Shown here: one piece after another, positions 11,806 to 12,163 of the stretch
Layout: each line of letters begins with the position of its first letter
Position numbering within the stretch: the stretch's first letter is position 1
Sequence record: OR844765
Strand: one strand, 5' to 3'
Origin: Escherichia phage ECO111 5-P
DNA length: 64,000 nucleotides
Position numbers and translations under genes: made by a program
The notes under the pieces: generated by a model
Databases searched by the model: none
What the model was told of the DNA's origin: nothing
Seen by the model: the letters and a program-made list of their open reading frames with translations, nothing else

Positions 11806-11836
11806 GTTTACAACGTATTTGGTATGTGATACTATA
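11806..11836 (+). promoter_or_regulatory. T4 early-type promoter (GTTTAC -35, TACTAT -10) driving ORF 11866
   Basis: GTTTAC, ~18 nt spacer, TACTAT; the downstream leader ...TACTATAGACTTATCAACTACAG(A/T)GGAGTAAACAAAATGACT is repeated almost exactly at ~49000. Confidence 0.5.
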
Positions 11837-11865
11837 GACTTATCAACTACAGAGGAGTAAACAAA

Positions 11866-12135
11866 ATGACTAAAGCACGTTTCTTACGAGATACTTTAAA
11901 AGTTCTGGAAGCTGAAGCAGTTAAGTTAGTAGAAAAATATGGTGCAAAAGTTAATGGTAATGCCTTCAACAAAGTATGGATGAAAGTTGATTCTGAAGCT
12001 CGAGCTAAAGGTTATTGGGCCACTGATAAACTTGCATCATTCAAAAACAAAGACGGTTCTCCGGCATATGTCCAAGAAGGTATGCCTAATTGGCAAAATA
12101 TTTTGAAAACTTACATCGAAATTGCACAGAAATAA
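11866..12135 (+). CDS. Hypothetical 89 aa protein in the gene 23-24 intergenic slot (where T4 carries segD)
   Basis: Complete ATG ORF with GGAG RBS and early-type promoter; no recognisable motif. Confidence 0.55.
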   Translation: MTKARFLRDTLKVLEAEAVKLVEKYGAKVNGNAFNKVWMKVDSEARAKGYWATDKLASFKNKDGSPAYVQEGMPNWQNILKTYIEIAQK

Positions 12136-12145
12136 AACCAAAAAT

Positions 12146-12163
12146 GGGAGACCGAAGTCTCCC
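12146..12163. terminator. Palindromic hairpin GGGAGACCGAAGTCTCCC between ORF 11866 and gene 23
   Basis: Perfect 7-bp stem/4-nt loop followed by T-rich run on plus strand; identical hairpin recurs at ~31498; approximate. Confidence 0.55.

Follow-up and report, generated by a model that had tools for sequence, protein, structure and literature searches.

A 47-base early promoter-leader-start patch recurs almost exactly at two distant loci, one of them between head genes 24 and 23, in an RB69-like T4 relative

The closest described systems are the PeSLs, cassettes that combine an AT-rich region, a sigma-70-like early promoter, a stem-loop, a Shine-Dalgarno (SD) sequence and a start codon (PMC2839356, PMC4122927). 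PeSLs are enriched in hyperplastic regions and are implicated in recombination, and the few core PeSLs, in the replication and virion modules, almost always precede genes of unknown function (PMC2839356, PMC4122927). ORFs flanked by PeSLs are known to move (PMC2839356), and mini-circles are a product of recombination between such cassettes. According to Repoila et al. (1994), as cited in PMC4122927, T-even internal-protein genes shuffle behind conserved 5′ sequences. In that account promoter, leader and first codons are likewise common to otherwise unrelated small genes, with the difference that the common segment specifies a functional capsid-targeting peptide, whereas the patch described here shares only two codons. 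The early promoters of T4 are of the UP/-35/TGn/-10 type and are used by unmodified host polymerase (PMC2988021). Early mRNAs are in turn targets of RegB, which cuts GGAG in the SD of many of them, its own included, strong sites conforming to GGAGRAYARAA (PMC3014915). Both loci of interest here carry HMM-predicted early promoters in RB69 (Pe:109605, 29.9 bits; Pe:72567, 33 bits), and a late promoter, Pl:109573, is predicted beside the first (Nolan et al., 2006). The cassette class and its shuffling role are thus already published and the promoters were predicted in 2006; we found no literature description of the identity between the two loci or of the GAGGAG junction reported below.

The analysis covers a 64-kb window of Escherichia phage ECO111 5-P (OR844765), and coordinates are those of this window, position 1 being its first letter (Table 1). 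Positions 11400-12600 are 99.5% identical to Escherichia phage ST2 and likewise match other members of Mosigvirus; the phage belongs to Mosigvirus, the genus of RB69-like T4 relatives. In annotated close relatives the gene order is rnlB, gene 24, a hypothetical 89-aa gene, a terminator, gene 23, 22 and 21. The preliminary description had placed an 89-aa ORF on the opposite strand between the genes for gp24 and gp23, and this ORF is present as described. The gene 24 late promoter, TATAAATA, lies on the other strand just six bases to the left of the early -35 box, so that the 24/23 slot holds divergent late and early promoters. This late promoter box and its flanks are kept in all eight homologous slots of our slot alignment.

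Table 1. Positions of the features discussed (window coordinates, except for the T4 site)
Feature	Position	Strand	Evidence or remark
Gene 24, head vertex protein, late	10484..11764	-	ORF list; capsid vertex protein in 99%-identical phages
Gene 24 late promoter TATAAATA	11792..11799	-	read from sequence; back to back with early promoter
Early-type -35 GTTTACA, 24/23 slot	11806..11812	+	near-invariant in slot alignment
Repeat copy 1: TGn/-10, discriminator, ~24-nt 5′UTR, GAGGAG, ATGACTA	11826..11872	+	
TGn and -10 (TGA TACTAT), 17-nt spacer from -35	11827..11835	+	9/12 matches, TG before -10
Shine-Dalgarno GAGGAG, contains GGAG, candidate RegB site	11852..11857	+	eight bases before ATG
89-aa ORF, phrog_6003	11866..12135	+	ORF list; PHROGs
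Gene 23 intrinsic terminator, 9-bp hairpin, UUCG loop then U-run	12144..12165	-	sequence; WFL6982 annotation
Gene 23, major capsid protein, late	12193..13761	-	ORF list; annotation of close relatives
-35 ATGTACA, e.7-like cassette	48983..48989	+	orthologous to GTGTACA in Tequatrovirus
Repeat copy 2, GTGGAG in place of GAGGAG	49003..49049	+	
54-aa ORF, phrog_5461, RB69ORF145c	49043..49207	+	between e.8 and frd.3/e.6 homologues
regB early cassette, third diverged family member	60577..60642	+	19-nt inverted repeat, promoter spacer and SD
regB endoribonuclease gene	60634..61092	+	Pfam PF10715, E 6e-69
T4 segD promoter-like site	AF158101 ~107253-107281	-	place of Mosigvirus early promoter

It had been proposed that a leader of about 45 nt in front of the 89-aa ORF recurs some 37 kb away, upstream of the small ORF at 49043. 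On exact alignment the two copies are identical at 46 of 47 bases, the sole mismatch (A11853 versus T49030) falling within GAGGAG/GTGGAG. The recurrence therefore passes the exact-alignment check set for it at the outset and is real, although the repeat is not all leader: its first ∼ 10 bases are the TGn/-10 element and ∼ 6 more are untranscribed. The pattern has exactly two matches in the window, against 0.00 in 100 dinucleotide shuffles. We also compared 15 early-type cassettes from the window pairwise, from the TGn element to the third codon (105 pairs). The 24/23 and e.7-like cassettes head this list with 46/49 identities (94%; median 60%, sd 12%), and the runner-up is the 24/23 cassette paired with regB (80%). 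Together the shuffles and the 105-pair comparison rule out chance or a promoter consensus as the cause of the repeat. Both of its edges are sharp. Upstream, the spacers (ACGTATTTGGTAT and AGCACCAAGGATG) differ, as do the -35 boxes; downstream, the ORFs part ways after ATGACTA and identity ends at codon 2-3. Direct comparison of the 89-aa and 54-aa proteins, a check suggested at the outset, detected no similarity, and the two are unrelated.

The promoter in the 24/23 slot had been called early-type, and its -35 box, 17-nt spacer and TGA-TACTAT agree with that type; TGA-TACTAT with a 17-nt spacer is found at both loci. In the slot alignment the -35 box reads GTGTAC in one contig. A/T-rich UP regions can be read upstream of both promoters (TAGATTATTTATAAAGATT at 11787-11805; GAAAAATTAAAAATAACG before 48983). 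Judged by sequence, both promoters are early-type, with predicted early timing and activity. Transcription would start near 11842, giving a 5′UTR of ∼ 24 nt whose non-SD bases are CAACTACA and TAAACA. No RNA structure was detected in the leaders (z +0.1 to +1.1; 0.28 and 0.13 for the two patch copies), and the GGAG is unpaired at 11854-11857 and at 49031-49034. The patch would thus serve as a strong early expression signal of the ordinary kind: a sigma-70 -10 preceded by TGn leads into a short unstructured leader, in which a GGAG SD with an A-rich 3′ context would favour immediate translation. Its fit to the strong RegB site GGAGRAYARAA is 8/11 (GGAGTAAACAA), and the leader of the window's own regB (GGAGAAATCAA) also scores 8/11. 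Immediate-early expression followed by RegB-assisted shut-off is the likely behaviour.

The second copy of the patch falls within the plastic part of the early region that comes after gene 1, gene 57 and the tRNA genes. An Rfam scan of the whole window returned two tRNA genes, at 47155-47226 and 47258-47331 (62 bits each), and nothing else; a close relative has tRNA-Met and tRNA-Arg annotated at the corresponding place. The 54-aa gene and its promoter spacer are ∼ 87-91% identical in DNA between Mosigvirus and Tequatrovirus (T2, teqhad, PhiZZ23 and others), and their upstream neighbours differ between the two genera, which suggests that the e.7-like cassette may have been exchanged between genera.

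The patch does not stand alone: it belongs to a dispersed, published family of early cassettes. With the 47 bases as query, blastn (E up to 0.01; identity down to ∼ 80%) finds three to eight places per genome in several genera, including the fronts of alc (JS98), denV (T4), regB and frd.3. The aligned family core, TG.TACTATAGAC.TATCAACTA.AG.GGAG, recurs at regB in the window, at T4 denV (GATACTATAGACCTATCAACTACAGGAG), at JS98 alc and in the 24/23 slot of JS10. The leaders of T4 denV, JS98 alc and Mosigvirus regB share this common core and are 83-87% identical to the patch; the regB copy in the window (60596-60642) matches it at ∼ 40/45 positions with a 2-nt gap. A candidate denV homologue at position 59926 of the window was rejected.

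In several respects the two cassettes resemble PeSLs. The upstream region is AT-rich, SD and start codon follow a strong sigma-70-like early promoter, the gene downstream is small and of unknown function, and the PST/T4 consensus TTTACW-N17-TAYWAT fits the patch promoters. Early promoter, SD and start codon form one repeated unit, and in phage LF82-2 the cassette sits at an allele-replacement junction (see below); the replaced patch of the e.7-like cassette is a second such breakpoint. The differences are equally clear. What was exchanged is a 47-nt internal patch, not an ORF between two cassettes. T4 denV, JS98 alc and regB moreover keep a 5′ arm (CTCCTGTAG, CTCCTCAT or CTCCTCTAGTTG) whose pairing partner is the SD region: their leader is the 3′ arm, and the 5′ arm lies within the promoter spacer (CTCCTGTAG/CTACAGGAG). 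In contrast, neither patch copy has this arm, so both lack the feature that defines a PeSL, and a search for inverted repeats of at least 6 nt found none at either copy except the palindrome CTATAG. Stem-loops were found at regB (19 nt) and at 44948, 45324, 45652, 52057 and 53998. The patch copies, without the PeSL-defining stem-loop, are best called degraded members, at best ‘half’ PeSLs.

Several other cassettes of the window deserve description in their own right. At 44948, 45324, 45652, 52057 and 53998 (plus strand) the -10 lies inside a perfect stem, TAGGACTA...TAGTCCTA or GGATGAT...ATCATCC; such stem-enclosed -10 cassettes are the classic PeSL type and are clustered in the plastic region. 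At regB the 19-nt inverted repeat (60578-60596/60614-60632, 89% complementary) pairs the promoter spacer with leader and SD, so that RNA reading through from upstream would hide the regB SD and RNA from regB's own promoter would not. A similar inverted arrangement occurs at 57024-57080 (CTTCCTCCAAG/CTTGGAGGAA). Six genes (45013, 45386, 56741, 57501, 57825 and 58165) start with variants of ATGAAAAC.TAT.A.GA.TTTAT, which encode MKTYQEFIAE-like sequences, the capsid-targeting N-terminus of T4 internal proteins; they form a family of internal-protein genes with similar leaders.

The 89-aa protein gives tblastn matches in 239 phage records, about half of them at least 95% identical (Mosigvirus) and about half 31-38% identical (Dhakavirus, Gaprivervirus and a few Mosigvirus). 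Homologues occupy the same slot, on the opposite strand, in JS10, VR7, LF82-2 and three metagenome contigs, at 31-71% amino acid identity. Because synonymous sites are saturated across these homologues and dN/dS is 0.04-0.15, the ORF, annotated as hypothetical in more than 100 genomes, is a real protein-coding gene under purifying selection. From its synteny in three genera it is also an old resident of the slot. The gene is dispensable nonetheless: RB69ORF188c and RB69ORF189c (RB69 109291-109531) are fragments of a frameshifted, decaying copy, and phage mogra has a truncated version of 51 aa. A confident AF2 model of the protein (mean pLDDT 86.6) has the order H-H-E-E-H, and a fold search with this model gave no informative match. 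Pfam returned DUF4859 below threshold (17.9 bits versus a cut-off of 22.6), PHROGs a family without assigned function, and only eight database relatives of the protein were found.

The preliminary description also credited the small ORF with its own terminator. This has to be given up. The hairpin downstream of the ORF (-17.8 kcal/mol) has a C(UUCG)G loop and a T-run, TTTTGGTTTT, on the minus strand and is therefore the terminator of gene 23, whereas AAGGTTAT comes after it on the plus strand. The independent annotation of WFL6982 likewise puts the terminator on the gene 23 strand. The convergent small ORF shares the hairpin as a barrier. The terminator at the end of the slot in VR7, AAGGGACCtcaaGGGTCCCTT, has a T-run on either strand and is bidirectional, and in the genera of VR7 and JS10 two tandem gene 24 copies (24a/24b) adjoin the slot.

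Since the proteins are unrelated and the -35 boxes and spacers differ, the near-identity of the two patches can only come from copying. An earlier proposal of duplication or transfer of the promoter-leader-start unit is thus upheld for the copying; transfer of the gene is contradicted by the slot homologues in several genera and their dN/dS of 0.04-0.15. Exact matches to the patch were found at no loci other than these two, IMG/VR yielding one locus and the JGI metagenomes five, all at the same two positions. The e.7-like copy of RB69 is identical to the window's 24/23 copy at 47/47 bases, and the 24/23 copy of RB69, which goes with the pseudogene, differs by three substitutions. A patch of 47 bases is too short to tell purifying selection from recent origin. 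Exactly two exact matches, at the same two loci, are present in each of two complete metagenomic genomes of Mosigvirus; the copies agree at 47/47 bases in one genome and at 46/47 in the other, and the e.7 copy of OCHD01000040 carries a private change from A to G. The presence of both copies in RB69 and in the metagenomic genomes places the copying before the split of these phages, and the later differences are private to lineages, which argues against continuing homogenization. The nearest 24/23 alleles (70-71% amino acid identity) have another -10 and leader. When Mosigvirus is compared with five Tequatrovirus genomes, the parts of the e.7-like cassette that flank the tract on either side are 87-91% identical and the tract itself 64-65% (Fisher p 7e-5 to 8e-4), a drop which indicates replacement of the patch in one of the lineages.

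The direction of copying is less clear, since the outgroup clues conflict. The C of TACTAT matches the 24/23 slot of JS10 and the divergence of the e.7 cassette is patchy, which would favour a 24/23 donor; an e.7 donor would be favoured by the T of GACTTATC and by ATGACTACT, which agree with the e.7 cassette of Tequatrovirus. ATGACTAAA is, however, native also to a 71%-identical allele of the 24/23 slot, and ATGACTA is native to both gene families and hence uninformative. A third donor outside the 64-kb window may also have been involved.

We consider it probable that one ancestral ectopic recombination or gene-conversion event homogenized the patch between two dispersed members of the early-cassette family. 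In an ancestor of Mosigvirus a single such event would have carried 47 bases, from TGn/-10 to the second codon, from one cassette to another. The cassettes would already have been alike at their edges (TG.TA.TATAGAC.TATCAA on the left, AAAATGACTA on the right), and these stretches would have served as homology arms. The strong form of the preliminary description, in which a whole promoter-ORF cassette was recently inserted into the late head-gene cluster, draws on the mobility of PeSL-flanked ORFs (PMC2839356) and on the polymorphism of the slot, which holds segD in T4, another allele with a SegD homologue in LF82-2 and a pseudogene in RB69. It is very unlikely, because three genera and the metagenome contigs hold homologues at this position and in this orientation, with 31-71% amino acid identity and saturated synonymous sites; the -35 is also near-invariant, the adjoining late promoter is conserved throughout, and identity with the e.7 cassette ends at codon 2-3. 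Could repeated gene conversion instead keep the copies alike to this day, as in concerted evolution? T4-type phages recombine at very high rates, and two copies that point the same way, 37 kb from each other, might interact, yet differences private to single lineages stand unerased (T49030, the G in the e.7 copy of OCHD01000040 and the three in the RB69 24/23 copy) and 47 bases are a very short substrate, so we find continuing conversion quite unlikely.

Identity might also be held by selection, if regB, the 24/23 ORF and the e.7-like ORF made up a small regulon and the leader were its specific operator, be it a tuned site of RegB/S1 cleavage or one bound by another translational regulator. 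In all three leaders the GGAG is unpaired and an A-rich stretch comes after it, RegB cuts the SD of its own mRNA as well as other early SDs (PMC3014915), and in RB69 the copy attached to the pseudogene has its three substitutions where the copy at the intact gene has none. Against this, the -10 and the untranscribed discriminator are just as identical, although an operator would have no need of them; GGAGRAYARAA is matched at just 8/11 positions, and many other early leaders of the window have GGAG and an A-rich stretch without the patch sequence. As selection maintains identity but cannot create it, a copying event would still be required, and we judge the operator unlikely. A broader version, in which the patch and its regB relative define a small co-regulated immediate-early set with a common fate, the 24/23 member also running antisense into the end of gene 23, seems to us improbable to a similar degree; if true, the identity would be functional and not a historical accident, an identical initial transcribed sequence and SD context being tuned, for example, for the same RegB/S1 cleavage kinetics or the same Alt-dependent promoter boost. 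That antisense transcription of the gene 23 3′ end is the main role of the early promoter, with the small ORF secondary, is extremely unlikely. The plus-strand hairpin is followed by AAGGTTAT without a U-run, and the next terminator-like site on that strand is at 13253, ∼ 1.1 kb inside gene 23; the small ORF is nevertheless under strong purifying selection, the bidirectional terminator in VR7 indicates that read-through is not conserved, and the RNA may still be halted or stabilized by the hairpin (-17.8 kcal/mol).

The single ancestral copying event that we favour has parallels at other early leaders. Between the late promoter and GAGGAG the Mosigvirus LF82-2 has the same sequence as the window, and from there on it becomes Dhakavirus-like (ATTAAAAATGAACAA...). 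It has a 32%-identical allele of the small gene and, three bases past the stop, a homing endonuclease 57% identical to T4 SegD. This junction, exactly at GAGGAG, shows that early leaders can act as crossover points. A second exact repeat of leader, SD and start, AACATGAGGAGAATATTATGA, covers 21 bases at 48652-48672 and 54039-54059, where none is expected by chance, and precedes two other small early ORFs (starts 48669 and 54056). Sharing of patches between early leaders is thus recurrent.

The segD locus of T4 occupies the same 23/24 slot in the same opposite-strand orientation. T4 has no small ORF there, and the window, unlike T4 and LF82-2, has no endonuclease. A 2010 review noted that no segD promoter had been identified and described the orientation of segD as a notable exception (PMC2988022). 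Directly upstream of segD, beside the gene 24 late promoter, we find TTTACA-17-TGnTATTAT (10/12 matches), a candidate early promoter. The BLAST alignment suggests that SegD may start at the second ATG, annotated residue M4. The opposite-strand early slot between genes 23 and 24 is ancestral.

Our findings open no new mechanism, and are useful for annotation, engineering or deletion of the 24/23 region. They put T4 segD in context, as the occupant of an old opposite-strand early cassette slot common to several genera, and they provide a clean, datable case of early promoter-leader cassettes as the seams where T4-type genomes get re-stitched.
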